A DNA stretch of 36,058 bases from Amoebidium appalachense (Eukaryota; Protista; Ichthyosporea), in NCBI GenBank assembly GCA_963693365.1, contig CAVNZM010000041.1, positions 1 through 36,058 on the forward strand, written 5' to 3'. A model generated the notes under the pieces. The model did no database searches. It was not told the DNA's origin and saw only the letters and a list, made by a program, of their open reading frames with translations. Both the position numbers and the translations under genes were made by a program. Below, piece by piece: positions 7,878 to 32,953 of this stretch. Position 1 is the first letter of the stretch, and every line of letters begins with the position of its first letter.

Positions 7878-9304
7878 ACGGGGTGTACCACACTGCATTG
7901 GTGTTTTGTTAGAAGCACTCTTGTCTCAAACCTATGGTAGAGCTGTGGTTAATGGGCACCTTTCATATGGTTTTTCTCGTACTAGAGGTCTCTTGCAGGG
8001 TTCATTGCTTAGCCCCTTTTTGTTTAACCTATTTATAGATGATTTGGCTGTCAAGATTTATGCCGAAAACGATGACCCTATTAATAACTTTCCGCCTGCA
8101 CTTCTCTATGCTGATGATCTGTCCCTCCTTGCCCGTACCCCTAGATGCCTGCAAAGATTGTTCGATGAAGTGTCAGAGTGGTGCAAGGCAAACCTTATGA
8201 TCCTTAACATAGACAAATGTGGTGTTCTTGTACCTGATATAGCCAACAATTTACACACATTTACATTATCATCTAAAAATGTACCTATAGTTCCAGAATA
8301 CAAATATCTTGGTGTTCCGGTTAATTCTGTTGGTGTTATGTTTTCCCATATGGTTGAAAAGAGGGTAGAGCTGGCTCGTAAGCGGTTAGCTTTCTTCTCG
8401 GCTAATATTCTTAAAGACACCCCCCTCCATCCTTCGATTAGAATTACATTTATTCTCACTTTTGTCTTCCCGGCATGTGAATATGGTTTACCCCTTCTCG
8501 CCGCTTGGATAAAGAAAGAGAGAACTAGAGCGCTTAAACCCCTGGCAAATTTCCTTGAAGCAGAAGTTGCCTCCTTTCTATCTAACAACTGTTGTAAACC
8601 TGGGCCTGTAACGCTCTCGATATATGGTCTGGTCCCAATAGCTGCTAGAGTATCTCATCTCGCGCTGAAATTCAATAAGCACATAAGCCGCTTAAAGAAG
8701 TATTTGCCCTCCCACCCTCTCTTCTCTATCCACCTATCCCCTCTTTCCTTCCCTCTCTCTCTCCTTCTCCCCCGGGCACAAATACAAATAGACCCCACAA
8801 AAGTGTGTGTGTGACTTGGTACTGCCACTTACTTTTTAGACATGTACATAATCACAAAATAATTACGCAATATAACAAATGGAAAAAGATGCCACACGAC
8901 ACTAGACCCGATGAAAGCGTACACCTTGAAAAACTAAGCCTTATGTCTCGGTTTATATATAATGACCGCCTTAACCATATTACCAAATATGGCACTCGCA
9001 AATGTGTAACACCTAAATACACATTACCTTCCTGTAGAATAGGTCTTTCTCTAACTGATGGTATTATTGATCACATACCACGCTTTTACTGTACACGTGC
9101 TATACAGTGGAGATCTAACTTAATAAGTATAAGGTGGCATCATTTGCATGCCCAAACAACACACACACACACACCAGTTTAAACGATCATGTATCGCCAA
9201 ATGTAGTTTAATTGTTGGAATACGTCACCATGTATGACAGCAAGAGCCTTGAAGTATGTATGTGTCCTAGCTTGTTTGTATTCGTGTCTGCTTTCCTTCT
9301 TTGT

Positions 9305-9348
<44 letters not shown>

Positions 9349-10290
9349 CCCCCTCTCTCTCCCCCCCCCCCCCCCCCCCCCCCCGTATCTCTCTCTCCCT
9401 TGTTTCTGTGGGCACAGATATCTGTAGATCTGTGCACACCTGGCTCTCTTGCCTGATAAGAACTTATTGTATTTTATTTCTGTTTGCTCTCCTCTGTTTA
9501 TCTGAGAGGTAGCGTGATTGGCTAGCCTCACTCGTTGTCTTTCCTTTATTTCAAAATGGCTTAGTTTTGTTCTCAATAGGATGGCTCGCCAATAGTCGCG
9601 AGCGAGTACATCTGTAGATTGTGTTGTGCATTCCAGTCTATTAATATATGTGTGTTGTGATTGGACAATAGATATATATGGAATTCGGTTTATTGCAAAG
9701 TGTCTTCACTTTGAGAGTGTCGACTATTAGGAAATATATGTATTTAAATAAGTTTCTTTATAGAGACGAACATAAATATATATGTGAGTTAATAGTGACT
9801 AGATGTATAATTACTTAATTTATTTAAGTAAGAGTTTCTAAACTTTAGTTTAATCGGAAGTTGGAAAGCGTATGCTCTGTCGGAATGTGTTTTTCTATCT
9901 TCTGATAGAACCGATTGGTTCTCCCTCTTTAGTTGTGATAAGGTGATAAGTCGCAAGTACAAAAGGAACCGAGAGCACAATAAAGAATCAGTTGTTGTTT
10001 GAAATCTTTCAATGTCTCGTGAACAACTCCGATTGCCCTCTCATTAATGTGTTAGTCGTGTTTTACATGACACCTCTGTGCACTCTGCTCCCTTAGACCC
10101 GTACAAAAACAACATTAATAGACCACATTATACCGCAACACACACACACGACACATTCACAACAGACACCCAGAAAGATAGCCTACCTGAAAATTACAAC
10201 ATCCTTGATTTTATACTAAACACGCGTAACTACGACCTGTTTATTAGATGTATTGATTGGCTTGAGAAATACGTCATTACAAAACTCTAG
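7878..10290 (+). pseudogene. Non-LTR retrotransposon (LINE) reverse transcriptase, 3' part, interrupted by a solo Copia LTR
   Basis: GLLQGSLLSPFLFNLFIDDL, LLYADDL, LNIDKC and YKYLG RT motifs. The C-terminal part continues with frameshifts (8805-9212) and resumes after the LTR to ..ILDFILN..YVITKL*. Confidence 0.88.
9213..10114 (+). mobile_element. Solo LTR of the Copia family at 19518-26649, opposite orientation
   Basis: TGTTG...CAACA ends. 5-bp TSD TTAAT (9208-9212, 10115-10119). Near-identical reverse complement of the Copia LTRs. Confidence 0.95.
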
Positions 10291-14974: not shown

Positions 14975-15204
14975 CCAAGCCCGGGGGCCCCGGGGACCAG
15001 GGGCCCCCCCACCCAGGGAGGCCCGGGACCGGGGGCCCCCCCACCCACGGAGGCCCGGGGGGCCACGGGGGCCCGGCGTTAGTTTACCGGGGGGCCACGG
15101 GGGCCCGGCGTTAGTTTACCGGGGGGCCACGGGGGCCCGGCGTTAGTTTACCGGGGGGCCACGGGGGCCCGGCGTTAGTTTACTACTAACGCCGGGCCCC
15201 CGTG
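14975..15204. repeat. GC-rich terminal repeat: two ~33-bp units, four perfect 32-bp units, ...ACTACT end and 20-bp hairpin
   Basis: (cggggggccacgggggcccggcgttagtttac)x4 at 15056-15183, then tact. Stem 15160-15179 pairs perfectly with 15185-15204 around loop TTACT. Confidence 0.95.
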
Positions 15205-15991
15205 CTTTTGACGGCAGGCACCAGCCTGGCCACCACCTCTGCGTCCATGCCACTCACTAACCCTACCATTTTCACCAGTAGGAAGGGGTACCCTACAAAG
15301 TTCTTCCTTGCCTCGTCCTTGTACCGGCGGTGCCACGACAAGGAAAACTTAAACATGCCCGTCAGCAACTCCAACTGCTCGCACGTGAACCTAGGGAGGG
15401 GGTGCCCGTACAGCCTGTTCATGATATAAGGTACGTGCACGTAGTGCCGTGTGAGCTTGTTCTGCCTCAACACCCTCCTTGCCTGGTCTGCACTCTCTCT
15501 GTGTTGCACGCCCCTGAATGCTGCCACCACCCCCTCCTGCATGTCCCCCATAGACGCATTCAATAGCCCTTGAACCGACTGCAGCAGCTGCTTGAAGTGG
15601 TTAATGTGTCTGTACGGCTGAGACCTCTTTCTGTCCCAGAAGGCCGTGCAGAGTCCCTCGTACGTCTTCCTCCCCTCACCGTCACTCCCCTCCCACCCCC
15701 TCCCGTCGTACACCCAGTCCTCCTCCTCCTCCTCCCCCTCCCCCCCTCCCTCCCCCCTCCTCGTACACGTACTCCTGGTCCCCTCTCACCGTCGTGCTCG
15801 TATTCGTCGTGTTCCCCCGTGCACGTCTCCCTCTCCTTGCAGGATGCCCACCAACATGCACACGGTGGCTGTGGTTTTGGTTGTGTGGTGGTGGTGTTGC
15901 AGTACATGTCATAGAGGAAGGGGCACAAGTCTAGCAGCTTCTCAGGGTCTGTGGTGTCGGCCACCATACTTAGCAGTGTGTCCTCGTCCAT
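15203..15991 (-). pseudogene. VLTF3-like late transcription factor, N-terminal and central part, endogenous viral
   Basis: PYRHINHFKQLLQSVQG..RRVLRQNKLTRHYVHVPYIMNRLYGHPLPRF..RKNFVGYPFLL follows the VLTF3 YKRINHF..YYEH...I..RKNF pattern. Cys-containing N-terminus with a frameshift near 15790. AT-rich AAAATTAAAATG start context. 3'-truncated by the hairpin. Confidence 0.82.
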
Positions 15992-16087
15992 TTTAATTTT
16001 AATTTTTTACGTGTGTGTGTGTGTGTGTGTGTGTGGCCTACGGGTGTTGCAAAAAGTGAAGTGTTTGTGTACATGTGTGTGCGCCTT

Positions 16088-16706
16088 TTATATGTTTTGG
16101 TGCCTGCTCTTTCTGGCAAGCCTCCCACCCTTGTATGCATGTACGGTGGTGGTGTTGGTGTTGTTTCTACCTGTGCCTGCATGTGGTGGTCTGCTGAACG
16201 ACACGTTTGTGTTTGTGTTTGCATTAAGTCCTGATTTTAATGGCTGTTGCCCCTCGTGCACACGGTGCACATGGTGTATACCTAAAAACACACTCTTTTT
16301 CTTTAAGTTCTTCTTCTGACCCCCCTGCCCGTGCACATGGTACCCTATTTTTCTATCTTTCAAAGCTAAGTTAACAGACACCTCATATAATTTTCAAATT
16401 TACTCTAATGTAACTTCAGGTGCTTAGATTACGTATGGTCCGCATGCTCTAACTAACCCCCTCCCCCAATCAAAACTGCAGCGTGCCCTCCGGTGCAGCC
16501 CACCCAATGGGGTAGCTGCGTACACTACCGTCTGCCGCCTCAAACACCCCCCTCTTGTCGAAGGCACCCGACTGTGTCTTGCGCTGGTCCTTGCTGGCCA
16601 GGTGGTAGTTGTGGGGGACCCCGGGCACGGGTTCACGGAGCAGCCGGTGGTTGGTGACGCTCACACTCGGCAGCTCGCCGTGCACCAGCCTACAGAGGTT
16701 GGGCAT
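16088..16706 (-). pseudogene. Decayed intronless ORF(s) upstream of and co-oriented with the VLTF3-like gene
   Basis: MPNLCRLVHGELP..GWAAPEGTLQF is followed by several TGA/TAG stops. No family recognised. Confidence 0.3.
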
Positions 16707-16746
16707 GTTGACGGTGTCGGCTGCACGGCGGGAGAGGGTGATGCCG

Positions 16747-18315
16747 CATCAGCAATCTTGCCGAAACATCCGGAACCCATAAAAGATACATTAAAGATAT
16801 CCATATACTCAAACCCATCCTGAACATAACCCTACATCCAGTTCATGGGTTTAAGATATGTAAATATAAATGGATATTAATCTTGGATATCTACGGCTAA
16901 TATGTATATAGATATCTGTTAAAACCCTGATATCCATTGGATAACTACTGTTAGGGATCCACTAGATATCCACGGGAAACGTGATATCCAGTGGATATCG
17001 AACACTAGATATGCAAATACACATGCACAACATATATACTGGATATGCAACGAAGGTATCCAGTGACTGGAAACCTGCCGAAAACCCTATCCATTATGAT
17101 ACGTAATATATATATATAACATGCATAAAAGGTGCACAATCGAGATCCAATTGATATGCTGTGGGTATTACTAACCTAAATCATATGTAATTGATACAAA
17201 AGAGATGTAATTTGATATGCAATACATATAGGTTGTGCATAGATTTATTACCGAAAATGCGGTTCATTAGATATACAGATAGCTATGTATATAGGCATAG
17301 AATACCTATATTGACTATATACAGTCAGGTCACCAATAGACCTCATAATAGTTGCCAAGTAGACCAAAGCATAGAGGTTTTATTTGTGGAAATTATTGAC
17401 ATAAATATTTTTCTGGGTAAACACGTAGGATGGGTGTTCGATACCAACATAACCATGTAGGCTTCATTTCGTGTTTTAGCAGTTAGCGGTTGGCTGCCCG
17501 CACACGGGCACCTATTAGCCAGTCAAAACATCAGATACCACAGATCACTAGACCGAGTTATGATTGGCTCGGAACAGATTTCACATATCACTAGATCGAT
17601 TTTTGATTGGTTCAGATCGGTAGGCTTAGGTATATAAGCACGACAGTTTTTAGCAGATCAGCAAGCTACAAACACATCTTCTGTGTTTAGCATCCACAGC
17701 CTTACAGCTATATATTCCTTTTCACCCACCCACCTACACCCACACACAACCCCCATTGATCCACACATACGTGCTGTTTTTTCACGGGGCGAAGCCTTCC
17801 CCCGTTTTTTGGGCACATGGACCTCACGGATCAATAAATTGATGACTGGGGGCTTGCCGTGGTTTACAACCATTGCAGGTTCACTTTCGTCCAAGGGGAT
17901 GTCCCCCTAGAGGCAACACACGTCCCGGAGTAGTTTTTCATAGATATCCAACATGCATCCCAGTATATATGCACTGGATCAGTAAATGAACAACGAAAAT
18001 GGATGTGATAGACGACCAAAAGACACCCTTTAGATATCGGCCCTTGCATATATTATATATATAAATAGACATATAGGCAGAAATCCGAACAACGTGTCTG
18101 GATATGTATGTTATATCCACAGTGATATCTAATACTTATCCGTTGCATGTATATCCTAAGGACTAATCTAATATATGAGTGATATCCAATCGGATATCAT
18201 CACTTCCGTGTCTGGATATGCACTAGATATCCAGTTTGATATAATTTAGCAGTCCATTAAATATATATCTCGATGAGTAGTCTAATATATAAATAATGCC
18301 CAATTGGATATGCAA
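16747..18315. repeat. AT-rich GGATATC/GATATCC array, probable left subterminal region of a large DNA transposon
   Basis: Many dispersed GATATC-type palindromes. Begins CATCAGCAATCTTGCC, 14/16 identical to the reverse complement of the end at 3141. Interrupted at 17376-17938. Confidence 0.6.
17376..17938 (+). mobile_element. Non-coding terminal-repeat relic of the Ngaro/DIRS-like family
   Basis: 17376 to about 17725 is a diverged inverted copy of 32618-32953, with the same ATTGG boxes and TATATAAG. Flanked by CATAGA at 17370-17375 and 17939-17944. Confidence 0.7.
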
Positions 18316-18616
18316 TACCCCCCCCCCCCCCCCTCGTTGGGATCTGGCACTTGCTCAACGACGGCAGCACAAGTCTTTATGTACACGTCATGCCCCACAG
18401 GAGCATGACCAGTTTTATCTAAGTCATGCTCACCAGGAGCATATGACACACAATCCAACACTTACTTTTGATTATGAACTATTACAGGGTCCAGTGACCT
18501 TCTTGCTTACAAACTACACATGTTTTTTTGTTACTACTATAAGACGTATTAATAAAGAAAAAAAAAAACACAAGATCAACTTGAACACACTGGGCACAAT
18601 CAAAGATAATTGTTTT

Positions 18617-18648
<32 letters not shown>

Positions 18649-19517
18649 CTTCCTTGCTTTTTTTGGTGGCGCGTTCCTCATCCTCCTCCTCATTGCGCAC
18701 CCTCTTCTTGCTGCCCTCATCCTCGCTGCCCTCGGCCTCGCTGCCCTCGGCCCCATCGCGCTCGCTGGCGTCGCCGTCCCTGTCCCCCTCTTCCTCGCTG
18801 ACATCAGCGTTCTTCACTTGCTCACGCTCGCTAGTCTCATCCTTGGGCTCGCTGTTGCTGCCATCTCCGCTGACCTGGCCACCGCTGCCGTCAGCCTCAA
18901 CCGCATCCTCATCACGGCCGCCGTCGTTGTCAGACCCCGGCTGCAAGGGGGAGACGGGGGGCTGCAGTTCTTGCTCGCCTGGGCTGTCATCCTTGTTGGC
19001 GTTGCCCCCCTTGCCCACCTCTAAGGCCACCTTGGCCTTGGCGCTTGCAGCCCTCTCGGCCAACTTCTTGGCCTGGTACTGGTCAGCCTTGAGCCTGATC
19101 TTGACCTTCTCCCAGTTCTTGATGTACTGTATATGGGGGGTATGTGCAAGCATGAATGATAAAAGGTTATAGAAATGGGGCGGAGGGAGGAGGGGGTGGG
19201 TGGGGGGGGGGGGGGGGGTAAATGTTAGTACCCAATATGTTTCAAGTCCAACAGCTATGTAAGAAGGATCAACTGAACACCCATCTAACAATGTGTATAC
19301 GGGGTGAAGCAGGCGACAGTTCCCTAAGCAGGATTCTAAACAGTAAATGTTGAATACAAACTGTTTGCTGACACCTAGGACACAAAAAGTAAACCATTCC
19401 ACTTGGCAAGGACTGTTCAAAAGTTTACAAGAAGATAAGTGCCAATAAAGCATAAAACAACCACTAAAATAAAGGATTACACAGCACACACACCTGCTTG
19501 ATGGTGGACAGCCTGGC

Positions 19518-20260
19518 TGTTGTTTTGTACGGGTCTAAGGGAGCAGAGTGCACAGAGGTGTCATGTAAAAACACGACTAACACATTAATGAGAGGGCAAT
19601 CGGAGTTGTTCACGAGACATTGAAAGATTTCAAACAACAACTGAATCTTTATTGTGCTCTCGGTTCCTTTTGTACTTGCGACTTATCACCTTATCACAAC
19701 TAAAGAGGGAGAACCAATCGGTTCTATCAGAAGATAGAAAAACACATTCCGACAGAGCATACGCATTCCAACTTCCGATTAAACTAAAGTGTAGAAACTC
19801 TTACTTAAATAAATTAAGTAATTATACATCTAGTCACTATTAACTCACATATATATTTATGTTCGTCTCTATAAAGAAACTTATTTAAATACATATATTT
19901 CCTAACAGTCGACACTCTCAAAGTGAAGACACTTTGCAATAAACCGAATTCCATATATATCTATTGTCCAATCACAACACACATATATTAACAGACAGGA
20001 ATGCACAACACAATCTACAGATGTACTCGCTCGCGACTATTGGCGAGCCATCCTTTTGAGAACAAACTAGGCCATTTTGAAATAAAGGAAAGACAACGAG
20101 TGAGGCTAGCCAATCACGCTACCTCTCAGATAAACAGAGGAGAGCAAATAGAAATAAAACACAATAAGTTCTTATCAGGCAAGAGAGCCAGGTGTGCACA
20201 GATCTACAGATATCTGTGCCCACAGAAACAAGGGAGAGAGAGATACGGGGGGGGGGGGGG

Positions 20261-20312
<52 letters not shown>

Positions 20313-20444
20313 GAGAGAGGGAGAGAGAGAGAGAGAGGGAGAGAGAGAGAGCACAAAGGAGGAAAGCAGACACGAATACAAACAAGCTAGGACACATACA
20401 TACTTCAAGGCTCTTGCTGTCATACATGGTGACGTATTCCAACA
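19518..20444 (-). repeat. Copia 3' LTR, preceded on the minus strand by PPT GAGTGGGGA (20445-20453)
   Basis: Direct repeat of 25717-26649; about 3 substitutions seen by eye plus microsatellite length differences. Confidence 0.97.
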
Positions 20445-21162
20445 TCCCCACTCAAGGGGTTGAAGTTTGTGTTCTCGTGTCTGTTGATGTGACGGTAGAT
20501 GAGGTCCAAACACAGGAGGGGCCGTCACACTCAAGTTTCCCCACTCGAGGATGCAAACCGAAGATCCTTGAGGTGGGAAGGAGAGAATCAAAACTGAAGA
20601 GGCACACAACGACGGTTGCCTCTGAAGACTCGAAATAAGAAATCATGGTGGTTATCGGCGATATATATATATAGATAGGAAACACTAGTGTATGTGTGAC
20701 GTGTTGGTGGCTAATGGTTTATACTGGGGACCACCCAGGTAAACACAAGACATGAACATCTTGTGGACTGATTTATAGACTGGTGGTCAACCAGTTAAGA
20801 CACGGGGAAGGTGCATCCCGTGGACTAGGTTTAGACTGGCAGTCAACCAGCACGTCATGGCTATAGATAATTATTTATACTGGGACGCCATCCCAGTTCG
20901 ACATATATATAAGTCGAATATAGAAGAAAACCAATATATATGGTGGGATATGAATATAAATAAACGACGGATGGTGGAGAATAATCGCCACTGAAGATGC
21001 ACACATATGACGATGGAAGACTGAGTCCCCACTGATGAAGAGAAACGATGAGGAGTAGTAGACTTTCGTTGGGAGGCATCTTGATCACCGTAGGTGTGTC
21101 AACTGCTGTCCAGGGCCCCAACCTACTCAGAAACCACTCGATGATGAACACCAGTGCACGGG

Positions 21163-23046
21163 TCAGTCACGGAGACTGAGGTTGGCACGGTGTGTGTCGT
21201 GGGCCGTACCAGCCAGAGGCTTGGTGAAGATGTCGGCCAGGTTCTTCTTGGTGTCGATGTAGGTGACAGTGACGTCCCCACTGTTGATGTAGTCCTTTGT
21301 GTTGAAGTAACGAACGGCAATGTGCTTGGTCCGGTGCTTGATGGTGTTGGAGTGGACCAGAGCAATGGTGGACTGATTGTCACAGTACACGGGGGTGGGC
21401 TCGGTCATGGGGTAGCCCAGCTCCTTTAGTAGATCACGGTGCCAGACAACATCTTGCACGGCAGCATTGAGGGCCAGGAGCTCGGCCTCACACGTGGAGG
21501 TTGCAGTGATCGTCTGCAGCTTGGAGTGGTAGGTGACGGGGGAGCCTTCGAGGAGGATGACGTACCCAGACGTGGAACGACGGGTGGTGGGGCAACCAGC
21601 AAAGTCAGAATCCGAGTAGCACTCAAGGATGGGCACCTTCAAGTTGCTGTTGGGGGCCTTCTTCTTGTAGTAGAGGCCGAGGTTGATGGTGCCGAGCAGG
21701 TAACGAACGACACGGAGGAGAAGCTCCCAGGCAGTCTTGGTGGGCTTGGAGCTGAATCGGCCGAGGTAGCCAATGGCATACGAGATGTCAGGCCGGGAGC
21801 ACCGAGCAACTTGAACCCACAGCAGACGGCCGAGGAGTTCACGGTAGGGGACGGTGGTGGGCAGGGATGAGTGGGAGGTCTCGTTGATGATGGTGCCCAC
21901 GGGAATAGGGGTGGCCTTAGGCTTGGCATCGACCAGGTTGAAGTCGGTGATGATGTCCTTGATGTAGGAGGACTGCAGCAGCTTGAGGGAGTCACGGGTG
22001 TACAGCAGTTGGGTGCCGAGGAAGATGTCTGGCAGACCGACCTTGCACTCGGCAGACTTCGTGATGTGACGAACAAGCCCCTGCATGATGGTGGAGTTCC
22101 GTGTGCAGGTGATGATGGCATCATCAACGTAGTTGCCCGAACGGATGATGTGCCCGTTGGGGAACTGACGGAAGTAGACACACGGATCGGAACGGAGACG
22201 GGTGAGGCCGTGGGCAATGAGAATGGAGTTGAAGAACTCGTACCATGCCAGGGATGCCTGCTTGAGTCCGTAGATGGCCTTCTTGAGTTTCCAGACTTTG
22301 TGTTCATTGCCAGGGAGGATAAAACCAGGAGGTTGCTCCATGTACAAAGTCTCGTCGAGGGGGCTGTTGAGGAAGGCCGTGCTGATGTCGAGTTGATGGA
22401 TCTCGTGGTCCTGTTGCACACCGAGGGCAAGCAGGGCACGGACGGAGGAGGACATGACGACGGGGGAAGAGTTTTCACCGTAGTCAACACCGTAGACTTG
22501 GGTGAAACCCTTGGCCACACCACGACCCTTGATCTTGGTGTCACCAGCAGAGTTGAGGGCCTTCTCCGTGACAATCCACTTGAATCGGATGATGTTGGCA
22601 TCGGAGGGGGGCTCAACTACGTCGAAGATGTCCTTGTCGATGAAAGCCTTGTACTCGGCAGTGAGGGCAGTCACCACTTCATCACCCTTGGTGCCAGAGC
22701 ACAGCTTCTGAATTGACCGGGGCAGCTGAGACACATCAAGGCTGGGTCGGGAGATGCTCACCATAGCCATAGCAGGCCGGGAGGCGAGACGGGAGGAACG
22801 ACGGGGAACGGTACGGAGGGGCTCAGGGGCCGGGGGGTTGTCTGTGACAGACACTCGGTGGTCGGGGATGGGGGCCTGGAAGCCAGGGATGGGTGCCGTG
22901 TTGAGGGGGGAGTCGGATAACACGGGGCTGGACGGGGCCGAGTGGAACTCCGGAGACCCAGGACGAACCGGGGTGAGATGACCAGGTACGTGGTCATTGA
23001 CGGCAGGGGCCGGCAGCAGGGGTTGCTGACCGGTGGGGGGGGGGGG
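21163..23046 (-). CDS. pol: Copia pol: reverse transcriptase and RNase H
   Basis: KGRGVAKGFTQVYGVDY, QLDISTAFLNS, KLKKAIYGLKQAS, YVDD, YSDSDFAG..RRSTSG, CDNQS, RTKHIAVRY, ADIFTKPL. Confidence 0.97.
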   Translation of the reverse strand, partial: PPPPTGQQPLLPAPAVNDHVPGHLTPVRPGSPEFHSAPSSPVLSDSPLNTAPIPGFQAPIPDHRVSVTDNPPAPEPLRTVPRRSSRLASRPAMAMVSISRPSLDVSQLPRSIQKLCSGTKGDEVVTALTAEYKAFIDKDIFDVVEPPSDANIIRFKWIVTEKALNSAGDTKIKGRGVAKGFTQVYGVDYGENSSPVVMSSSVRALLALGVQQDHEIHQLDISTAFLNSPLDETLYMEQPPGFILPGNEHKVWKLKKAIYGLKQASLAWYEFFNSILIAHGLTRLRSDPCVYFRQFPNGHIIRSGNYVDDAIITCTRNSTIMQGLVRHITKSAECKVGLPDIFLGTQLLYTRDSLKLLQSSYIKDIITDFNLVDAKPKATPIPVGTIINETSHSSLPTTVPYRELLGRLLWVQVARCSRPDISYAIGYLGRFSSKPTKTAWELLLRVVRYLLGTINLGLYYKKKAPNSNLKVPILECYSDSDFAGCPTTRRSTSGYVILLEGSPVTYHSKLQTITATSTCEAELLALNAAVQDVVWHRDLLKELGYPMTEPTPVYCDNQSTIALVHSNTIKHRTKHIAVRYFNTKDYINSGDVTVTYIDTKKNLADIFTKPLAGTAHDTHRANLSLRD

Positions 23047-25606
23047 TGGGTGGAGCCACGGGGGCAGGTACATGACGGGGGGAACGACGGATAATCACCG
23101 ACGGAATTTCATCGTCATCGGAATTGGAATTTCCGGAATGCAGGGATGAATCGATTGAGGTCGTCTGATTGGTGGCCTGCACGGAAATCTGATTGGATGC
23201 CGTGGTGAATTGTGATTCGTCGAAGACGACATCGCGGTAGAGGTTGACCGTGTTGCCACGTAGATTCATGATCTTGTGGGCTTTGTTGGTGATATCCCAG
23301 CCCACGTAGGTGCCGAGTTTGACGGTAGAGGCCAACTTGTCTCGTTTGGATGCAGGGACGTGTACATAGGCTGGGCAGCCGAACACGTGCAGGTGGGAGA
23401 TGTCAGGCTTGACACCGTAGAAAATTTCAAACGGTGTACGGCCATTGGCAGCTCTGGCCGGGGTCACGTTGATGATGTAGGCAGCATGCTTGAGAGCAGC
23501 TCCCCACAGTTTGGGGGAAAGGGAGTCGGCCTTGTCCTGATGAAGGAAGCACCGAACGATCTCCTGCAGATCCCTCATCTTACGTTCAACGAAGCCGTTG
23601 AGTTGGGGGCAGTCAACCGGGGCAAATTCTTGAATGATGCCCTTGGACTGGCAGTACTGCTCCATAGCGTGGGAGGTGAACTCGGACCCAGAGTCTGAAC
23701 GGAAGTGGGTCACCACCTTGTCGGGTTGCTTGTCAGTAGTCTCAACCAGGGCCTTGACGTATTCGAGAGTTTCGGATCGATCACGGAGGAGGTACACGAT
23801 GGTGTAGCCGGAGGCATCACAGGTACACACGAGGGCCACCTTGTAGCCACCATAGGAGGCACAGGGAGGCTCGAAGAAGTCCATGTGCCACTTGGCACCG
23901 GGGAAGGGGCACTGGGTTCTGGTGCCGGAGAATGGGGCCTTGGTGGTCTTGCCGGAGACACAACCGAAGCAGTCAGTGGTGTCAGCCACTGAGAGGGATG
24001 AGGGGAGGCCTGTCACGAGGTCACCTCTCACCATCTTGGTGAGGGTGGACAGGGCACGATGGCCGAGACGGTGGTGCCAGAGCTGAGGATCATTGTTGAC
24101 CTTGACGTTGGCTACCAGAGCAGTGACGGTCCGAGGGATGGAGGGACGTATCTCATAGTCAGTGATGAAGTACAGTCCATCTGTGCCTGTGAGGGAACAC
24201 ACGATGTTGCCACCACGAGTGTAGAGGTATGATGGGAATGCATCCTCATCATCGAGGTGGGCAAGGAGACCCGACTTGGAGGCCATTGAGGGTGATATCA
24301 GGAAGGCTGGGGAGTCGGGTACATAGAGGGTGTTGAGGCTCAGTACTGATGTTACTCCGTTGTAGGTGACGGCCAGGTTGATGACACCACGGTGATGTGC
24401 AGTGACGATGCCGAGGCCGTGGACGTCAGTCGGGGGGCATGGCTCAAGAGTAGAGAAGTACTCTTTTACTGGGCACACGTGGACGTTTGAAGCCGAGTCC
24501 CAGCAGGGGTCCATGGGTAGGGAGGCCGTGGTGGACACGAGGGCAAAATGCACCTCTTTTCCAGACTTGGTGTTGGCACGGTGACGACGGGCAATTGAGC
24601 AGCCAGGTTTGTCACACTGTGTGACATGATGGTCTTCGTGACAGTAGGCACAGTCGAGGGAGCCAGTGGTCTTGGCTCGGGGTGGCTGGGAATGACGGTT
24701 ACCCCCTTTACGTGGGGGGTAGGGTGACCGGGAACGATAGCCGGGGGAACGGGACCGTGAGTAATCACGGTCAACTGAGGGGGATCGATCGGTGGGACGA
24801 CCGCGGGGGTGACGGGAGACGGAGCTGTCACGTCGGGGGATCCGGTGTCTGAGGTCGTCCTTGGTGAGTACACGGCTTTGCAGGGCACGTGCTGTTCGGA
24901 CGGTGGAGGAGGACCCGGACCCAGAGTCGATGAGACCTTCACGGATCTCTGCAGCTCTGATGTCACTGATTAGACGGTTGTAGGTCTCGTAGTTAATGGT
25001 ACGACGGAAGTAGTCGGCAATCATGGCCTGGATGTCGGTACAAACTAACTTACGGTTCTTCTTGAGGTGGATGAAGAAGTTATCAACCATAGTCTTGTGA
25101 GGAATGGGCTCTTCGAGGATGTGCAGGGTAGTGCACAGACGGCGTGCCATGGTGAGGTAGGCCGTGACGGTCTTGAAGTCTTTGAGTTCAAGCTCATGGT
25201 AGTCGAGGAGGATTTGACGAGCACGATCTTCACGTTCAGCCGCATAGGTCATACGGAGGTTGTGGAAAGCTTGGGCAGGTGACACATCATCGTGGATTTG
25301 ACCAGAGTTATACAGCTCATCATTGGAGACGAGTTGAGTAAACATCTGTTCAAGGAGGTTGGAAGCCTCGGTGTAGGCCTCCTCAGTGTAGTAGCCGTGC
25401 CACTCATTCTGGTCGGAAGGGTCGACCCACTCGGGGGCCTTGATGACGGGCACTAACTTGGCCGCGGTGGTGGTACGTAGGTACCGGAAGATGACGGGTT
25501 CCCACTCATAATAGGTGAGACGTTTGCCGGACTTCTTGTCCGTGGTGTCATCCCCTTTCCAGGGGGTGAGGTTGAGATACGCAGGTTTCTCCGACATGGT
25601 GATCAA
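23035..25606 (-). CDS. gag-pol: Copia gag-protease-integrase; joins RT across a frameshift in a G12 run (23035-23046)
   Basis: CAYCHEDHHVTQC zinc knuckle, WDSASNVH protease, LWHHRLGH..CFGC, DDE integrase (HMD, RSDSGSEF, PQLNGFVER), HLHVFGC and RDKL. Confidence 0.96.
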
Positions 25607-25702
25607 TCAGTCAGATGATGCGTGAGAGAGGAATCAGATCGGTATTCAAATTTGAATATTTTTGATTGCAGCGAGAGTATGTGTTTGCGAGAGCGTGCGA
25701 AA

Positions 25703-25716
25703 ATGGGCCTTTAACC
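25703..25716 (-). promoter_or_regulatory. Copia primer-binding site of the half-tRNA type
   Basis: GGTTAAAGGCCCAT follows the 5' LTR directly; it resembles the GGTTATGGGCCCAG half-tRNA-iMet PBS. Confidence 0.7.
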
Positions 25717-26469
25717 TGTTGTTTTGTACGGGTTTAAGGGAGCAGAGTGCACAGAGGTGTCATGTAAAAACACGACTAACACATTAATGAGAGGGCAATC
25801 GGAGTTGTTCACGAGACATTGAAAGATTTCAAACAACAACTGAATCTTTATTGTGCTCTCGGTTCCTTTTGTACTTGCGACTTATCACCTTATCACAACT
25901 AAAGAGGGAGAACCAATCGGTTCTATCAGAAGATAGAAAAACACATTCCGACAGAGCATACACATTCCAACTTCCGATTAAACTAAAGTGTAGAAACTCT
26001 TACTTAAATAAATTAAGTAATTATACATCTAGTCACTATTAACTCACATATATATTAATGTTCGTCTCTATAAAGAAACTTATTTAAATACATATATTTC
26101 CTAACAGTCGACACTCTCAAAGTGAAGACACTTTGCAATAAACCGAATTCCATATATATCTATTGTCCAATCACAACACACATATATTAACAGACAGGAA
26201 TGCACAACACAATCTACAGATGTACTCGCTCGCGACTATTGGCGAGCCATCCTTTTGAGAACAAACTAGGCCATTTTGAAATAAAGGAAAGACAACGAGT
26301 GAGGCTAGCCAATCACGCTACCTCTCAGATAAACAGAGGAGAGCAAATAGAAATAAAACACAATAAGTTCTTATCAGGCAAGAGAGCCAGGTGTGCACAG
26401 ATCTACAGATATCTGTGCCCACAGAAACAAGGGAGAGAGAGATACGGGGGGGGGGGGGGGGGGGGGGGG

Positions 26470-26553
<84 letters not shown>

Positions 26554-26649
26554 GAGCACAAAGGAGGAAAGCAGACACGAATACAAACAAGCTAGGACAC
26601 ATACATACTTCAAGGCTCTTGCTGTCATACATGGTGACGTATTCCAACA
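25717..26649 (-). repeat. Copia 5' LTR
   Basis: Direct repeat of 19518-20444; followed by the PBS on the minus strand. Confidence 0.97.
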
Positions 26650-26914
26650 CTGGCGCCCCCGTTGTAGTCACCACCGACATTATAGTTGACGTGGGCCCAT
26701 TGGATGGGGGTAGACAGGCACTTGTGAGCGTTGGGGTCCTTCAGCAACGACTCCAGGCAGAAAACGACCATGCTAAAAAACTTGGGGTATTTCTCAGCAA
26801 TGTCCTGTTGTGTGTGTGATGGCAGCGTTTGTGCCGATGTGGGTTTGTGTGTGTTGGCAGTGTGTGTGTGGGTGTGTGTGTGTGTGTACTAGTAGTATGT
26901 GTATGTGTGTGCAT

Positions 26915-27143: not shown

Positions 27144-27189
<46 letters not shown>

Positions 27190-27828
27190 CTGGCATACCA
27201 TGGGAGTCAGAGAGCTGATGCGGGTCTTGATCCCCGTGAGCGTGATGCTCTCGAACACATGGTTGAACCCACGCCATCCGAATGGATGGAAGGTGTCTGG
27301 GTCAGCTGAATACTTGCGGCCACATGGATACCCCATCACCACAACCTCGTCGATCAGCTCCACCCACTTGGCCTCCCGGTCGTTACGGGAAGTGGCATAC
27401 TCCATGATCTGCAAACAATAAAAATCAGGGTGTCGTTGAAATCCTCCCAAGACGTGTATGAACAAATGCTAAACATATTAAACACGTATCAATCGGTTGT
27501 CCAACAGATAGGTAAGCATACGTTTGTTATCTCGATAGGGGTGTACACGACATGCAATATATATGTATTATCCAATGAACATGTATGTGAAAGGATATCC
27601 AACGGATACCCATTAAACGACTACCGCAGACCAACGGTTTAGTACTTTCTGTGCATGTGTAAACCATATTTGCATAATCATTATGGTGTGGATGTGGAAG
27701 TGATCGTAAATGTTCTCTTTTTTGATTTTTAAATTTTTTGGAGGTGATGGGGTGTGTGTTATGTTTGAGTGTGTCTGGGAGAGGGGGGGGGGGGGGGGGG
27801 GTGGGTATGTGTGTGCGCGCGCGTGTGT

Positions 27829-27859
<31 letters not shown>

Positions 27860-28305
27860 GGGGGGGGGGGAATACCGATGAGTTGGTGTCAGGCACTGGG
27901 TAGTGGACGAAGGCATTGCGTATGTTGCCGTGAACCATGGATCTGACTGTGGTCAGCCCCGTGCGGATGGCCGTAACGACCTTCTTGGCGTCTGTACCAC
28001 GGGTCGCGCTGGCCAACATGCTCGTCCAGTGTTCCTTGCCCCTTGAGCTCAGTACATCATGTGCAGTCGGCATCACAGTCTTGATGGCCTCGAGGGTAGC
28101 AAGGGCCAGACTACAATTGTCCAACTCGTTGACAGTGGGGTTGACCAACAGCATCACCTGGTAGACCTGGTGAGACTTGGTGAACTGCTTGACGTTGTCA
28201 TTCTGTGGCAAACATGGGAGAGTGGATGGTGTGGGTGTGTGCGTGCGTGTGCGTGCGTGCGTGTTTTTTTTTTTTGGGAGGGTGGGTGTTTTGGAAAGGG
28301 GGGGG

Positions 28306-28346
<41 letters not shown>

Positions 28347-28861
28347 GTTTGAGGTCACACAAACTGGCCATTAAAATACAAACGAAAACAGGAGTAAAAC
28401 CTAGTCAAGTTCGAAATTTGTGATGGTTTGATAGTACCAGGGAAAAACAAAGAAAAGAAAAAGGAAAAAAAGACAAAAAAAAAGGGGAACAAAATAAATG
28501 GGTGGCAATTAAGGGCAACTGTAATGCGTTTAGGGAAAAGCGAGAGTCTGCAAAAACCATCGAAAGAATATTTACAAGAGAGAATAACAATTTCTTCCCG
28601 TCATATTAGGAGTACCTACCAGCCACTTGACGGTCTTGCCAGGGGTCAACTTCTCAAGCACAGGGATGTCGTCGTCATCATCCTCATCCTCGCTATCCGA
28701 CGAAGGGGGGGTACGCTTGCGGCTGCTTTTGGACTTCTTGCGGGGACTAGGAGTCTCGTGCTCATTCTCCGCATCGCCCGATTCATCACCAGATGGGCCC
28801 TCCGGTGGGATGTTTTCAAACTCAACGAAATTCCCTTCCGGCATGGAATGGCCGGCACCGC

Positions 28862-29345
28862 TGTAAACAGTTGGACTAGTTAGGATAAGGCAGAGTACAA
28901 CTGAATCAAAATAAAGACAGAGAACGGGTAGAAAGGCACACGCGGCCAGGTTGCTTTTACTATGGGCCGACTCAGTCTGTCTCAGACTTCACTGATGTGA
29001 TCCCCGTACTGGGACGGCTTTCTTATATAGCCCCAGGTTTCGGATCAAGGCCCAGGATTGGTTCATCCGCGGCCAGCGCGGGTGGCAACATGCCATTCGT
29101 GATTCTGGTGCGGTCCGAGCCAGTCAGACCTTCGTCCTATTTAAGCTGTAAAAACATCTTATTGGTTCACTTCGTTGATGTGGTATGCAGCGGTAGAACC
29201 ATATATGGTTTATTTCTTAGGTAAGATTGATTCCTATTGGTGCGGACATAATATTTATGTGATATTCGTTACAAAGCAGGAATCGTGTGCTAGTACATCA
29301 CATTCTTTAGTAAACATATACAGTTCATGTGTACAGTTGTTTACA
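28862..29345 (-). mobile_element. Solo LTR related to 7201-7877
   Basis: TGTAAACA...TGTTTACA ends. TSD ACCGC (28857-28861, 29346-29350). Shares its first ~90 bp and the TATA region with 7201-7877. Confidence 0.93.
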
Positions 29346-30049
29346 ACCGCGCAGCGCAGCCAGCATCTCATCCCTGCCTGCAGCGTAGGTAGTCCGCAGC
29401 TTGTCCTTCATCGTGGTGGTAGGGTAGCGCTTGCAGACAACCGTAAGGTAGTAGGCCAACCTGATGTCGTCATCCGGAAGAAGGTACTGCCCGTCGGCAT
29501 CTTTAGGAAAGTCCTCGTCGGCTCCCCAAGACGACATGAGGCGTTTTGGTTTGTCACCGCTTGCAGGAGACTTGGATGTATCTGTGGATAAAAGTGGGAG
29601 TGAGCATGGGTGAAGAAGTAAACTGGAAGGAAGATTGTGTGGGAAACATCACGTGTATACTTTTTACCTTAAACCTAGTTTAGGGTCATTATATGAGATA
29701 GATATGCATTTTGCATATGCAAAGGCATGTAACAGATAATGGGAGAAATTGTAAAGTTTACATTTTGTGACGTGGTGCCACAACGGGGGTATTTTATTAG
29801 CATACGAATAGTAAATGCTGAGCTGGGGACCCGGCAGGAAAGATATCGACCAACGGGGACGGCCCGTCATGAGCGGTGTTCGGATACAAAAACACAGCAA
29901 AATATTGACATGAAAACATCCGAACGGGGCCTGCAAGTTCGTGTCAAATTATTCATATCATATCCAATTCGGATTCTGAGAGTCCACCAAGAAGACAAAA
30001 CGAACAAAAAACGTGCCCATCACAGATTTGTGGTGAAACACGTCTTCGG

Positions 30050-30285
30050 GGAAACACGTATTCCGGAATATATATTAGAATCAAAATAAGCATGTTCCAG
30101 GAGCCATAAGACGTGTCTGCAAGTCCATGAGCAAGACGTTATAGAAGTTAGACAGTATTGATACAAACATATTCCGGAATACGATATTATGGGACAAGTG
30201 GTTTTGCTGTGGTTTGGGTCACGTAAAGATCTCATAGCTGAGCAGTCCCCAACGTGCAGAAAAACACATATTCCGGAATATGTTA
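30050..30285. repeat. Three spaced copies of the palindrome TATTCCGGAATA
   Basis: At 30059, 30170 and 30269, each preceded by an AAACA-type flank. Confidence 0.85.
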
Positions 30286-31334
30286 ATCGGCCTATTGCAA
30301 ACCCAGTTTTGTGCATTCTCAACCATACATGCCCGTGCTATGGACCAGAAAAACTGATACACTTATTGGTGTCAAGAGAACCAACCCAACCCCACCCCAA
30401 TCCCAACCACCATCTACTCGAGCTAGTAGAGACAAAAGCCCTAAAACATAACATAACACAACATAACACAAAAAAAAAAAACACAAGCCCGTTCGTTCGT
30501 TTGTTCGTTCCATGAGCATGTAAAAATATGTCAAGATAAAATGTGGCTGAAGGACAGGAAGCCGTTTATTCATTCAATCATTCATTCATTCTTTACTTTC
30601 ACTGAACGACGAGTGAATTCTCTAGAACATGTGTTTCAATACAAATATTGATGCAAATGAATACAAATTTATATATACCCACAGGGTATAACGTGATGGT
30701 CATTCGAGCAAACATCATGGCCATTGCAGCTGTTGTTGTCATTTGGGGCGCAAGCGCTTTGCAATCGGCTAGAAAAACATACTAAGCGGCAAAGGTGGGG
30801 GTGGGCTGTCGGCATCATACTCAGCGTCTACACGGTGGGTTGCATGGTGTTGAGTGCTTTCCTGAATGATATCAGGTTCTCGGACACCATGTTCTTGACC
30901 TATGTTTGTGTGTGTGCGTGTGCGCGTGTGTGCGTGGGTGTGCGTGGGTGTGCGTGTGCGTGTGCGTGTGCGTGTGCGTGTGCGTGTGCGTGTGTGCGTG
31001 TGCGATAGATTGTTAGCAGACTTATTTTCAACAAAAGTCAAAAAAATTTCCTAGAATATCCTTTTCACCATCCGTAAAACCATTCATCTTCCGGTCGCAT
31101 TCTTCCAGTCCTGCGATATAAAGACCCGTGCTTTTCAATGTGGCGAATTGAGTTATACAATCTGTATGTGGACAACAAGTTGTCAAGGCGTAAGGCAATG
31201 CATGGTTCGTTGATAGCACGTAGCATCCTTTTCACCGTGTCGCGTGTTTTTGACCAATTTTTGGTATAGGTGTAAAATCGGTACGCCTTTGATTTTCGAT
31301 CAGAAGATTTCAGTTCGTTCTCTAAATAATCAAG

Positions 31335-31381: not shown

Positions 31382-32953
31382 CTATGTTCTAGCTGTGTGT
31401 GTGGGTGTGCGCGTAGACTAGGCATTGTGTTTGCAGTCTTTGCGGGGGTGTGTGCCAGAGCAGAGCGGGCACACGTGGGAGAAGGGGCAGGGCTGCTTAG
31501 CGCAGGACCGACCGTTAATGTGGAAATTCCTGCAGTGCGTCGCGGGTAGATCCACGGGTCGGGCCGGTTTTGCCGGGCCGGGTTGCGGGCCAGGGCGGTT
31601 AGGGGTTTGACCCCCGCCGGGCTTGTGGGGCGGCTTAAAGCCGTCAAGACCACAGCCGGGCTTGGGGTACATGGGGCAGGCCGCGCTGGGGTGGTCAGGG
31701 AAGCCACAGCGCTGACATGCGTCCGGGATGAGCAGAGTGGGTGGCAAGAGGAGATCCTGGTGGAGTTGGGCGAGCAGGTTGGGACACTCGATCGGAGCCC
31801 GACCCTGCTGGTGGGCAACGGTTCGGGCGTATACGTCATAGTTGTGGATCTGGGCCCACGGGTATCGGGTGCTGAGGCGAGTGATGTGCTGAGTCCAAAG
31901 TACGTCTTTGTCCGTGGGGAGGCCGAGGTGGTGCTTGGCGGCCATGTAATGGGTCCAAGCCTGGATCCAAATGACGAGTGAACGCAGGGGAACGGGTTTG
32001 TCTTGGCGAAAAGTCTCGATGCTGCCGTCGTCGGCCATGCGCAGATGCTGACCTTTCTTGGATGGGGCCAGGAGGGCGGCGGGGGTGAACTTATACAGGT
32101 CGACGAAACGATTGGCGCGCAAATCTGCCAGCACATCCGCGGGGGGAAGCGGGAGTGTGCCCGGCTGAATGTCGCCAGTGTTCTCACCTGTGATGGGGGG
32201 CGCGGGCAGGGCAGGTAGGTCTAGGTCAGGGCCGAGATGCAGCCCCGGGGAAACCTCCCCGGGTGCGGAGGGCGCGGCGGGGGGCGCGGGAGGGTCGCGG
32301 TTGGTGAGAGCAGCCAGGACGCCAGCCATCTGGGTGCTGATGGCGGTAAGGGCGGCAAGGACGGCGTCTTGAGAAGTCATCTGCGGGGACGGCGGGGCCT
32401 GAGGGGGGACTTCAGGAGGGGAGGGGAGACTAGCCGGCGGGTCCGGGTCCGTGGTGGTATGGGCCGCTGGAGGCGCGTCAGTGTCCGCGGGAGCGTTGGT
32501 CAGCCTGTGGCGGAGGTCGCTGCGGGTCAGGCGCTTGGGTGCCGCGGCAGGGGCGGTGGCTGAGGCCTGGCGCTTTTTCGGCGGCATGCTGACCGGCGTA
32601 CGGAAAGATAGGGAGAGTGAAAAGAAAATATAGCTGTAAAGCTGTAGGTGCTAAACACAGAAGATGTGTTGTTGCCCGCTGATCTGCTAAAAACTGTCGT
32701 GCTTATATACCTACGGCTACCGAACTGAGCCAATCAAAACCGATCTAGTGTTATGTGAAATCTTATCCTGAGCCAATCAGACTCGGTCTAGTGATCTGTG
32801 GAATCTGATGTTTTGATCGGCTAATAGGTGCCCGTATGCGGGCAGCCGAACGCGAACTGCTAAAACATGAAACAAAGCCTGTTGATATCGGACACCCATC
32901 CTACGTGTTTACCCAGAAAAATATTTATGTCAATAATTTCCACAAATAAAACC
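31338..32953 (-). mobile_element. Truncated Ngaro/DIRS-like (tyrosine-recombinase retrotransposon) insert: terminal repeat/promoter, gag, A40
   Basis: Boundaries are set by the interrupted host frame and by homology to 17376 onward. TATATAAG at about 32702-32709 with CCAAT boxes. No RT or YR present. Confidence 0.75.
31418..32587 (-). CDS. gag: Gag-like ORF1 of an Ngaro/DIRS retrotransposon, 389 aa
   Basis: RFVDLYKF, WIQAWTHY..YPWAQIHNYD, CQRCGFPDHPSAAC knuckle and C-terminal CRNFH..C....CPFSHVCPLCSGTHPRKDC zinc fingers. Confidence 0.85.
   Translation of the reverse strand: MPPKKRQASATAPAAAPKRLTRSDLRHRLTNAPADTDAPPAAHTTTDPDPPASLPSPPEVPPQAPPSPQMTSQDAVLAALTAISTQMAGVLAALTNRDPPAPPAAPSAPGEVSPGLHLGPDLDLPALPAPPITGENTGDIQPGTLPLPPADVLADLRANRFVDLYKFTPAALLAPSKKGQHLRMADDGSIETFRQDKPVPLRSLVIWIQAWTHYMAAKHHLGLPTDKDVLWTQHITRLSTRYPWAQIHNYDVYARTVAHQQGRAPIECPNLLAQLHQDLLLPPTLLIPDACQRCGFPDHPSAACPMYPKPGCGLDGFKPPHKPGGGQTPNRPGPQPGPAKPARPVDLPATHCRNFHINGRSCAKQPCPFSHVCPLCSGTHPRKDCKHNA

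Follow-up and report, generated by a model that had tools for sequence, protein, structure and literature searches.

Avoidance of restriction sites by phages and suppression of CpG in animal RNA viruses are examples of a host-recognised motif that has been lost through synonymous change. Among retrotransposons, the Arabidopsis copia element ONSEN has a promoter free of CG and CHG, which has been read as avoidance of stable silencing (PMC3907296), while the flanking preference of DNMT3C and the sequence of young mouse retrotransposons have been proposed to co-evolve (PMC11099192; both according to the accessible parts of these sources). In Amoebidium, methylation in the CGC/GCG context is widespread and is the default also for transcribed genes; this mark does not track expression, silencing is accompanied by methylation of the other CG contexts, the methylation of silenced DNA being context-independent, and the youngest insertions carry the highest methylation (PMC11244446, in the portion available to us). 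Loss of CGC/GCG in a transposable element was not reported in the literature that we searched; the accessible text of PMC11244446 deals with methylation levels rather than sequence loss in transposable elements (the words “copia” and “escape” do not occur in it), and its fig. S3 could bear on the point.

Within the 36,058-nucleotide stretch analysed here (the window), a Copia element has a coding region that lacks about nine-tenths of its CGC/GCG triplets while ordinary CG has been kept. Like ONSEN, it is a copia element without sequence targets of host methyltransferases, but ONSEN has purged its LTR, whereas in the present case it is the coding body that is purged, CG itself is retained and the avoidance is limited to its flanking context, and the mark avoided is the default mark of the host rather than its silencing mark (PMC3907296, accessible part). 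An ONSEN-type absence of targets from the LTR promoter is not found, as the two LTRs have motif ratios (observed/expected) of 1.14 and 1.22. The exact methylase context of the likely host has been lost from the body beyond chance, the context being identical to that described for Amoebidium (PMC11244446, available portion), as the initial annotation had stated. In the mouse, preferred sites are enriched in the DNMT3C targets (PMC11099192, in part), whereas this element has lost the preferred context. In contrast to the phage and RNA-virus examples, this system has no known cutting enzyme or RNA sensor, the motif persists in the LTR and most of the plain CpG is still present.

The element (19518..26649, minus strand, as are all its parts) is full-length and shares with Ty1/copia (Pseudoviridae) the LTRs, a 5-base target duplication (CTGGC), the order gag-protease-integrase-RT-RNase H and the Pfam domains rve and RVT_2. 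Its 5′ LTR (25717..26649, 933 bp) and 3′ LTR (19518..20444, 927 bp) have TG...CA ends and differ at 7 mismatched positions and by one gap of 6 bases, simple repeats accounting for most of these differences, and the empty site is represented by a contig of run X11 that connects 19512 directly to 26650. It is a recent insertion of a young element. The start of the leader (25598..25716) resembles a half-tRNA type site and is, from its position, a candidate primer-binding site; no tRNA genes were found within the window. The frame for gag, protease and integrase (22994..25597; Pfam Pol_BBD, gag_pre-integrs, rve, SH3_retrovirus) overlaps that for a linker, reverse transcriptase and RNase H (21163..23094; RVT_2, PF07727, E 5e-59), the two meeting at a run of 12 G (23035..23046, no strand assigned). 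One contig of run X20 gives a different length for this G run and X11 does not; the break between the frames may have arisen as a slip, either in the assembly or in this particular copy. The integrase precedes the reverse transcriptase and RNase H according to Pfam, and motifs of these enzymes were also located. A 3′ internal non-coding region (20445..21162), with a short purine tract adjoining the LTR, completes the element, and a solo LTR of the same family (9213..10114, plus strand) is about 95% identical. The element is divergent: its closest protein relatives show at most 39% identity among the best 120 of 2634 matches, and 37% among the 150 matches listed in a further comparison. No relative was found in a single-sequence metagenome scan or in the viral and prokaryotic collections, and none of the solved structures matched. 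The flanking proteins had no named matches either. The sample comprises this one full copy, with host comparisons drawn from the window and the contigs aligned to it.

Between 21163 and 25606 (57% GC) there are 255 CG but only 5 CGC and 6 GCG, together 11 triplets that occupy 8 places from 22784 onwards, and GCGC is absent; the initial estimate by eye, of about 11 triplets with none in 21163-22780 and no GCGC, was exact. Synonymous-codon shuffling (3000 shuffles), which had been proposed as the check, gave an expectation of 88.8±6.7 triplets with a minimum of 63, far above the observed number. Because the shuffle preserves codon usage, the loss within codons lies outside this expectation. In a frame-free table, CGC/GCG has an observed/expected ratio of 0.12 and is the most depleted of the 32 strand-pooled triplets, the next lowest being at 0.58. 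The retention of CpG, also noted initially, holds with the qualification that CpG is mildly down overall (255 vs 329 in the shuffles). The depletion affects CGC as well as its reverse complement GCG, with CCG/CGG and GCC/GGC plentiful, and such a loss on both strands points to a reader of double-stranded DNA. The share of C is 52/103 before G (not GC) and 129/178 before A or T.

The motif is unevenly distributed along the element. Within the coding body, its share of CG is highest in the gag part (7/68), falls to 3/77 in protease-integrase and is nil in RT-RNase H (0/82, against 33 motifs expected; Fisher P 0.003 for RT-RNase H vs gag), so that the loss in the body grows from 5′ to 3′. The LTRs (6/21 CG in the 5′ copy, 7/22 in the 3′ copy) and the leader (5/6) are spared, the solo LTR retains the motif (7/22), and the value for the 3′ internal region (3/26) is not significant. 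Four of the six motif CGs of the 5′ LTR are clustered around a CCAAT word at 26226..26247; the cluster is retained in the solo LTR too and is a candidate promoter element. A general avoidance of palindromes was considered and rejected: CTAG, CATG, GATC and CCGG were low in a Markov test, but CATG and GATC were normal in synonymous shuffles, and the signal is weak for a set of 13 palindromes tested (CTAG 0 vs 3.1, P 0.024; CCGG P 0.039). An excess of CGCG likewise disappeared against the shuffles (3 vs 4.5).

The initial annotation regarded the loss as specific to the element, and the features that it named as motif-rich are indeed normal, with ratios of 1.14 for the intact Ngaro-labelled gag, 1.01 for the piggyBac remnant, 1.03 for the ORF at 13967-14729 and 1.18 for the exon at 18644..19128 (minus strand, first given as 18644-19126), where the motif accounts for 22/32 CG; a LINE is not depleted either. 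Specificity in the strict sense did not hold, as the stretches 29652-30705 (1/40 CG; 0/5000 permutations as low), 15336-16432 and 16894-18335 (4/40 each, P 0.024) are depleted as well, while parts of the element itself, the LTRs and leader, are not. The depletion in the window includes a virus-derived VLTF3-like stretch (5/35 CG, ratio 0.35; scan-corrected P 0.024). Outside the window, the lowest motif ratio among 40 scorable Copia RT regions was 0.54, and 12 GC-rich ones prefer CGC (138 vs 68 CGT); the triplet bias is unseen in these scorable relatives. The ratio covers 40 of 80 loci; the other 40 had fewer than 10 expected motifs, among them five with zero motifs and 1–8 CG each.

The loss is symmetric between the strands, confined to the body, and extends to codon positions at which only the adjacent base is free to change. 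Arginine is mostly CGT, as initially described, although third positions otherwise favour C: the CGN codons (n=86) are CGT 61, CGG 12, CGA 10 and CGC 3; as the remaining four-fold boxes carry C in 56% of their third positions, 48 CGC would be expected (P 4.5e-26). Alanine GCG is found in 3/103 (10.3 expected). A G directly before arginine CGN does not occur (0/86 vs 12.3±2.6; 0/3000 shuffles as low), and lysine and glutamate before arginine are AAA 2, AAG 0, GAA 2 and GAG 0, despite the overall dominance of AAG and GAG. Selection is well supported, since deamination cannot silently remove either arginine CGC or a G before CGN. Together with the lack of strong hypermutation between repeat pairs (see below), this agrees with the initial argument that passive deamination alone is inadequate. 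A codon preference of the host does not account for the CGT bias, as the remaining frames of the window together have CGC 47 and CGT 25 (Fisher P 2e-14). In RT-RNase H all 25 arginines are CGN and none is CGC; at ten conserved positions (arginine in at least half of 60 homologs) the codons are CGT 7, CGG 2 and CGA 1. The arginine count is normal (23 vs 25.7±4.1), so the residues have been retained and the codon changed. The strongest loss falls on the most constrained part, whereas a decay checked by protein constraint would give the reverse. Before alanine, G often stands in place of C (13/36 and 9/14), which deamination underpredicts at P<0.01 in 14 of 16 model settings; a selection model fits better in 12 of the 16 and deamination is favoured in 4. 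Codon patterns of this kind indicate that there has probably been selection against the motif in the coding body.

Cytosine-converted run X20 bears on the methylation state. For the element, all 21 C>T differences listed are at non-CG cytosines, and the sole 5 cytosines missing between them are CGs in the contexts CCGG, TCGG and CCGA; ACGA at 21011 keeps its C in a loose end of 6 contigs. Loose ends in which CG lacks its C occur at 23184 (in the element) and at 27971, where CCGT and GCGG are both converted. With 5/5 non-motif CGs between the listed differences apparently unconverted, the family appears to carry the silencing-type mark, which suggests that it is methylated at its other CGs and that full escape from methylation is not the case, with the reservation that these are listed differences from pooled contigs, selected at 80% likeness, a threshold by which contigs with less conversion are favoured. 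The host exon interrupted by the element (26650..26805, minus strand) served as an internal control for gene-body methylation: ACGA at 26748 and 26765 are converted (2/2 scorable non-motif CGs), whereas at least 27/29 CGs are kept in four pieces of the silent gene at 27225-28826. This split between expressed exon and silent gene is consistent with the Amoebidium pattern (PMC11244446, available portion) in 5 contig pieces, two non-motif CGs being scorable in the exon and the retention at GCGT 26729 being read from an absent difference.

Of several possible explanations, we favour, at even chances, a process in which selection acting between transposing copies cleared the body of sites for the default methylase and so would have delayed silencing. 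The host would be Amoebidium-like, with default methylation at CGC/GCG and targeted all-CG methylation on silenced repeats. A fresh, unmethylated insertion would first be marked at CGC/GCG by the default CG methylase, and from these marks the change to methylation in all contexts would start or be accelerated, so that a body lacking the motif would remain active for a somewhat longer time. Silencing would eventually reach most copies, the gain being a longer active window and not invisibility; as copies appear methylated at other CGs, motif loss may delay rather than prevent silencing. It is in this form that we infer a cost of the motif to the element. The initial annotation had stated that silencing acts through CGC/GCG methylation, which is not supported: host genes carry this mark and stay expressed, so it is not silencing by itself, and silencing goes with other CGs (PMC11244446, as far as accessible). 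In favour of such selection, a related protist has copia families whose synonymous sites are under selection (PMC6875170, accessible part). Several observations stand against a delay of silencing: LTRs and leader retain the motif, though seeds should cost most there; the Ngaro-labelled gag, the LINE and the piggyBac remnant are undepleted; the youngest insertions are the most methylated in Amoebidium (PMC11244446, in part); and deamination products are enriched, with 4/16 model settings on the side of deamination.

The last point counts equally for mutational load, which we consider unlikely: active copies would be methylated at body CGC/GCG like host genes, and fast mutation would cause silent decay and make motif-bearing essential codons lethal to lineages. 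It would explain the spared promoter and leader and the growth of the loss from 5′ to 3′. All four deamination products exceed the shuffle expectation (TGC 89 vs 59.9, CAC 133 vs 110.7, GTG 95 vs 73.2, GCA 57 vs 48.0), and, of the three differences that separate the LTRs outside repeats, one is a transition within the motif. However, the 61-fold CGC:CGT shift requires a scaled selection of about 4, which by rough estimate would take a hypermutability of tens-fold, whereas in four repeat pairs transitions affect 3/34 motif bases and 28/568 non-CG G/C bases, a ratio of 1.8 (interval 0.4–4.8); a strong RIP-like excess at the motif was not seen in this small sample. Among the copies in X11, C>T/G>A changes do not predominate (33 places, vs 38 for T>C/A>G), host exons and other transposable elements are undepleted, and 5mC has been described as having no strong effect on base composition across protists (PMC12695648, in the part available). 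Motif-creating substitutions at 22785 and 20987, which differ from all covering contigs, were discarded as evidence (2/11 internal variants listed, 9.5% by chance, P 0.28).

A third possibility reverses the role of the mark. If default methylation labels self, and the unmarked motif is confined to promoters and incoming DNA, motif-rich fresh cDNA could be flagged as foreign by its unmethylated CGC/GCG, or could fire cryptic promoters; the body would therefore be purged while the true promoter retained the motif. Such a signal would fit the retained LTR cluster and leader and the depleted VLTF3-like stretch, and would give a purpose to a mark that is independent of expression (PMC11244446, in part); against it, no sensor is known, and Ngaro-like and LINE elements, which also transit an unmethylated state, are undepleted. 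We regard it as quite unlikely. In a broader form, which we hold to be unlikely, the unmarked motif is a handle for recognising new DNA, as in the restriction-modification systems of bacteria, except that the new DNA would be silenced instead of cut, and the element, perhaps with the VLTF3-like fragment and two further stretches, would be a eukaryotic counterpart of restriction-site avoidance. A cutting enzyme is itself unlikely because the LTRs keep CGC/GCG sites.

A bias that has nothing to do with methylation in this host, inherited from an earlier host or due to an RNA-level or translational constraint of the lineage, is very unlikely. The best matches listed are at most 39% identical, leaving no close relative for comparison, but none of the 40 outside regions approaches the observed loss, which crosses codon borders, is strand-symmetric and affects the one context singled out in the likely host (PMC11244446, in part). 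It is extremely unlikely that copies without CGC/GCG are left unmethylated and escape silencing, as initially proposed, since, although the lost motif is exactly the preferred context and a minority of unmethylated copies could hide in pooled contigs, silencing methylation in Amoebidium is context-independent (PMC11244446, accessible portion), X20 suggests that the non-motif CGs are methylated, and the motif is retained in the promoter region, the part in which stealth ought to count most.

That the most conserved enzyme of the element has been recoded to avoid exactly CGC/GCG suggests that incoming DNA pays some price for the mark or for the motif, which bears on what gene-body-type methylation does in unicellular relatives of animals. 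As the effect is large, any genome could be scanned from its sequence alone and its families ranked by loss; in existing data, this ranking could be set against the age, copy number, expression and methylation of the families. There is also a bearing on the coding of transgenes for Amoebidium-like hosts, and, if the mark does denote self, parasite sequences would reveal the purpose of a methylation context that is otherwise unexplained.

None of the runs listed as containing the element was RNA, which says nothing about its expression. Expression of the interrupted exon is indicated by the RNA-like run X24, in which a 733-letter contig spans 26650..26805, extends past 26650 and joins an exon absent from the window; judging by how long this contig is, the downstream exon at 18644..19128 is probably part of the same host gene. 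The stretch 27184-28785 is not covered in X24, which is uninformative taken alone. In run X8, by contrast with X24, an intron is read through with no joint, as would be the case for DNA.

The coding region of the Ty1/copia element (21163-25606) has kept its CG dinucleotides and has almost lost the triplet CGC/GCG. The initial annotation had estimated this near-absence by eye, and exact counting bears it out, with 5 CGC and 6 GCG among 255 CGs. Among 32 triplet pairs in the region the motif ranks lowest (0.12; next 0.58), and the claim also withstood 3000 synonymous shuffles in the correct frames, which gave 88.8±6.7 motifs as opposed to the 11 present. Every codon-position class is hit (observed vs expected; hyphen, codon boundary): C-GCN (3 vs 45.1), NGC-G (2 vs 16.6), NCG-C (0 vs 8.9), G-CGN (0 vs 12.3), and the codons CGC (3 vs 48) and GCG (3 vs 10.3). 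The sequence bias is real and extreme, and has probably been selected.

Structurally this is an ordinary element, and a new one. It is full-length (19518-26649, minus strand), as judged from its LTR pair, a flanking target duplication of 5 bases and Pfam domains in the order protease, integrase, RT. The LTRs (927 and 933 bp) differ by 7 mismatches and one 6-base gap, mainly within simple repeats, and two frames overlap at a 12-G run (23035-23046). Protein collections contained no close relative, the best identity among the matches listed being 39% or less. A solo LTR of the family lies at 9213-10114. The primer-binding position (25704-25716, minus strand) is unlike the usual site for the initiator-tRNA 3' end, and presumably resembles half-tRNA priming sites. 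At 19517/26650 the element breaks a coding exon, and the insertion is polymorphic, as other samples carry the empty site, which is joined by one contig of the public run X11. The disrupted gene is probably expressed in the sample of run X24 (RNA by a tool's guess), because an RNA-like contig of that run covers the flanking exon 26650-26805 and continues past 26650.

Motif loss is restricted to the body and rises from 5' to 3'. Motif CGs account for 7 of 68 CGs in gag, 3 of 77 in protease-integrase, 1 of 27 in the linker and 0 of 82 in RT-RNase H (gag vs remaining body, P 0.01); the leader has 5 of 6, the 5' LTR 6 of 21 and the 3' LTR 7 of 22. Four of 6 motif CGs in the LTR form a single cluster around a CCAAT word, which is also present in the solo LTR. 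The view that depletion is specific to the element stands in part: most other features of the window have normal counts, including the gag-like frame and the piggyBac remnant chosen as undepleted comparisons in the initial annotation, but a permutation scan of the 1229 non-Copia CGs found three low stretches, 29652-30705, 15336-16432 (VLTF3-like) and 16894-18335.

The first of these stretches is non-coding, with 1 motif CG of 40 (0 of 5000 permutations were that low), and lies upstream of a silent intron-bearing gene with normal exon counts, the opposite layout to that of the Copia. The VLTF3-like gene (15186-16006, minus strand; Pfam Pox_VLTF3, E 8e-9), for which homology searches found no relatives, has two frames around C-rich runs and 5 motif CGs of 35; it adjoins GC-rich tandem repeats (15000-15200), and its part 15200-15422 recurs inverted at 3139-3361 (98.7%). 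The third stretch is AT-rich with many GATATC words and 4 motif CGs of 40 (P 0.024), upstream of an unexplained exon-like frame (16491-16739).

Deamination of a methylated CG can remove the motif silently where C is the third codon base or G the third base of NCG. Where CG opens an Arg codon, silent loss is possible only through a neighbouring base, never through deamination, and these classes are emptied too, including 10 conserved Arg positions (each present in half or more of the 60 homologs aligned, of 120 listed). Arg is not scarce; its codon box keeps the preference for pyrimidine endings (74%), taking T where other boxes take C, a 61-fold shift, and the other frames of the window favour CGC (47 vs 25). 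Before Ala, C is frequently exchanged for G. Among 16 settings of simple equilibrium models, 12 favoured selection and 4 deamination, and strong hypermutation at the motif was not seen in four repeat pairs of the window (transitions 3/34 vs 28/568, interval 0.4-4.8), a small sample in which sites gone from both copies are uncounted. The Arg classes, the repeat pairs and the model settings uphold the earlier proposal of selection beyond passive decay, and we consider selection against the motif, whatever its cause and mutational load included, highly likely.

With 104 C>T places vs 11-16 in three other runs, the public run X20 behaves, to judge from this pattern, as a cytosine-converted library. 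In exon 26650-26805, the ACGA sites 26748 and 26765 are converted completely in X20, and GCGT at 26729 is absent among the converted rows (piece with 27 C and 26 other letters). Across 27225-28826 of the intron-bearing gene, the other-letter counts of four X20 pieces equal the non-CG count or lie one above it, and therefore the mark is retained, in all contexts, at 27 or more of the 29 CGs; one loose end has both CCGT and GCGG converted. According to the accessible parts of the Amoebidium methylome study (PMC11244446), CGC/GCG is about 70% methylated and other CGs about 20%, and expressed genes bear chiefly the CGC/GCG mark. The idea of host silencing through CGC/GCG therefore holds as regards the preferred context, but not the silencing, as transposable elements and silent genes are methylated there in every CG context. 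The X20 split between exon and silent gene agrees with this published pattern, so that an Amoebidium-like host is likely. The silent gene (27190-29580, minus strand; exon-like frames 29325-29580, 28620-28860, 27876-28205 and 27190-27412) bears methylation at CGs of every context in X20, and homology searches found no homologs. It probably sits within a host-gene intron, since exon 26650-26805 is linked by the X24 contig to an exon outside the window.

Within the Copia, all 21 C>T rows listed for X20 are non-CG, and only 5 cytosines are missing between the listed rows, all CGs in non-motif contexts (40 of 326 rows). A loose end of 6 contigs has ACGA at 21011 unconverted; another, consisting of 2 contigs (23184), does not retain its CG. 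Since the table combines all copies and is biased towards less-converted contigs, it indicates the presence of Copia methylation, not its level. Methylation of the family at non-motif CGs agrees with the parts of PMC11244446 available and argues against the full escape that had been suggested initially.

One triplet has thus been lost strand-symmetrically, in the body only, including from codons that required a neighbouring-base change. We favour selection against this triplet as the presumed default methylase target of the host. Fresh copies may be marked first at CGC/GCG, such marks would putatively hasten the change to silencing in all contexts, and bodies lacking the motif could remain active longer. 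We give this delay model an even chance; its main problems are that LTRs and leader keep motifs and that Ngaro-like, LINE and piggyBac sequences are undepleted. Mutational load within active copies is unlikely though the best of the rivals; deamination products are above shuffle level, as selection and deamination models alike predict. Somewhat less probable still is that unmarked CGC/GCG acts as a foreign or promoter signal. A cause independent of this host's methylation is doubtful: among 80 Copia RT loci from metagenomes (hosts not identified), the median ratio is 0.92 (minimum 0.54) for the 40 in which 10 or more motifs are expected, and the RT-RNase H analyzed here has 0 motifs vs 33 expected. 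Full stealth is very improbable, being opposed by the X20 methylation in the Copia and by the available parts of PMC11244446.

As far as the literature covered extends, selection of this kind is a form of methylation-target avoidance that differs from known cases in place, level and mark. Restriction-site avoidance in phages and CpG suppression in viruses are further cases of comparison. The ONSEN promoter has lost methylase targets (PMC3907296), co-evolution with the flanking preference of a methylase has been proposed for DNMT3C (PMC11099192), and selection on the codon use of transposable elements is reported in a choanoflagellate (PMC6875170), each according to the portions available. In contrast to ONSEN, loss here is in the coding body; it operates at the level of flanking context, with CG itself kept, and the avoided mark is the default one, not that of silencing. 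The accessible portions of PMC12344493, bioRxiv 10.64898/2026.05.21.726589 and PMC12695648 contain no description of such motif loss.

Several other features were noted in the window. A short repeat of very high depth (28862-29300), whose left end at 28862 is sharp in 3 of 3 runs and which has a second copy at 7201-7367 (82%), is possibly a small non-autonomous element. A 249-aa frame (34812-35558, minus strand) with a weak otubain-like match (PF10275, E 0.22) lies beside a (CACCCC)n tract (about 34530-34690). The intact gag-like frame 31421-32950, putatively labelled Ngaro in the initial annotation, has a weak CCCH match (E 0.062), and its upstream end recurs inverted at 17376-17731 (87%). 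The piggyBac-like remnant (1258-2085, minus strand; E 0.008) and a LINE-type RT fragment (7642-8814, plus strand; RVT_1, E 3e-15) both have normal motif counts, and the latter holds a 66-base tandem duplication at 7667-7799.
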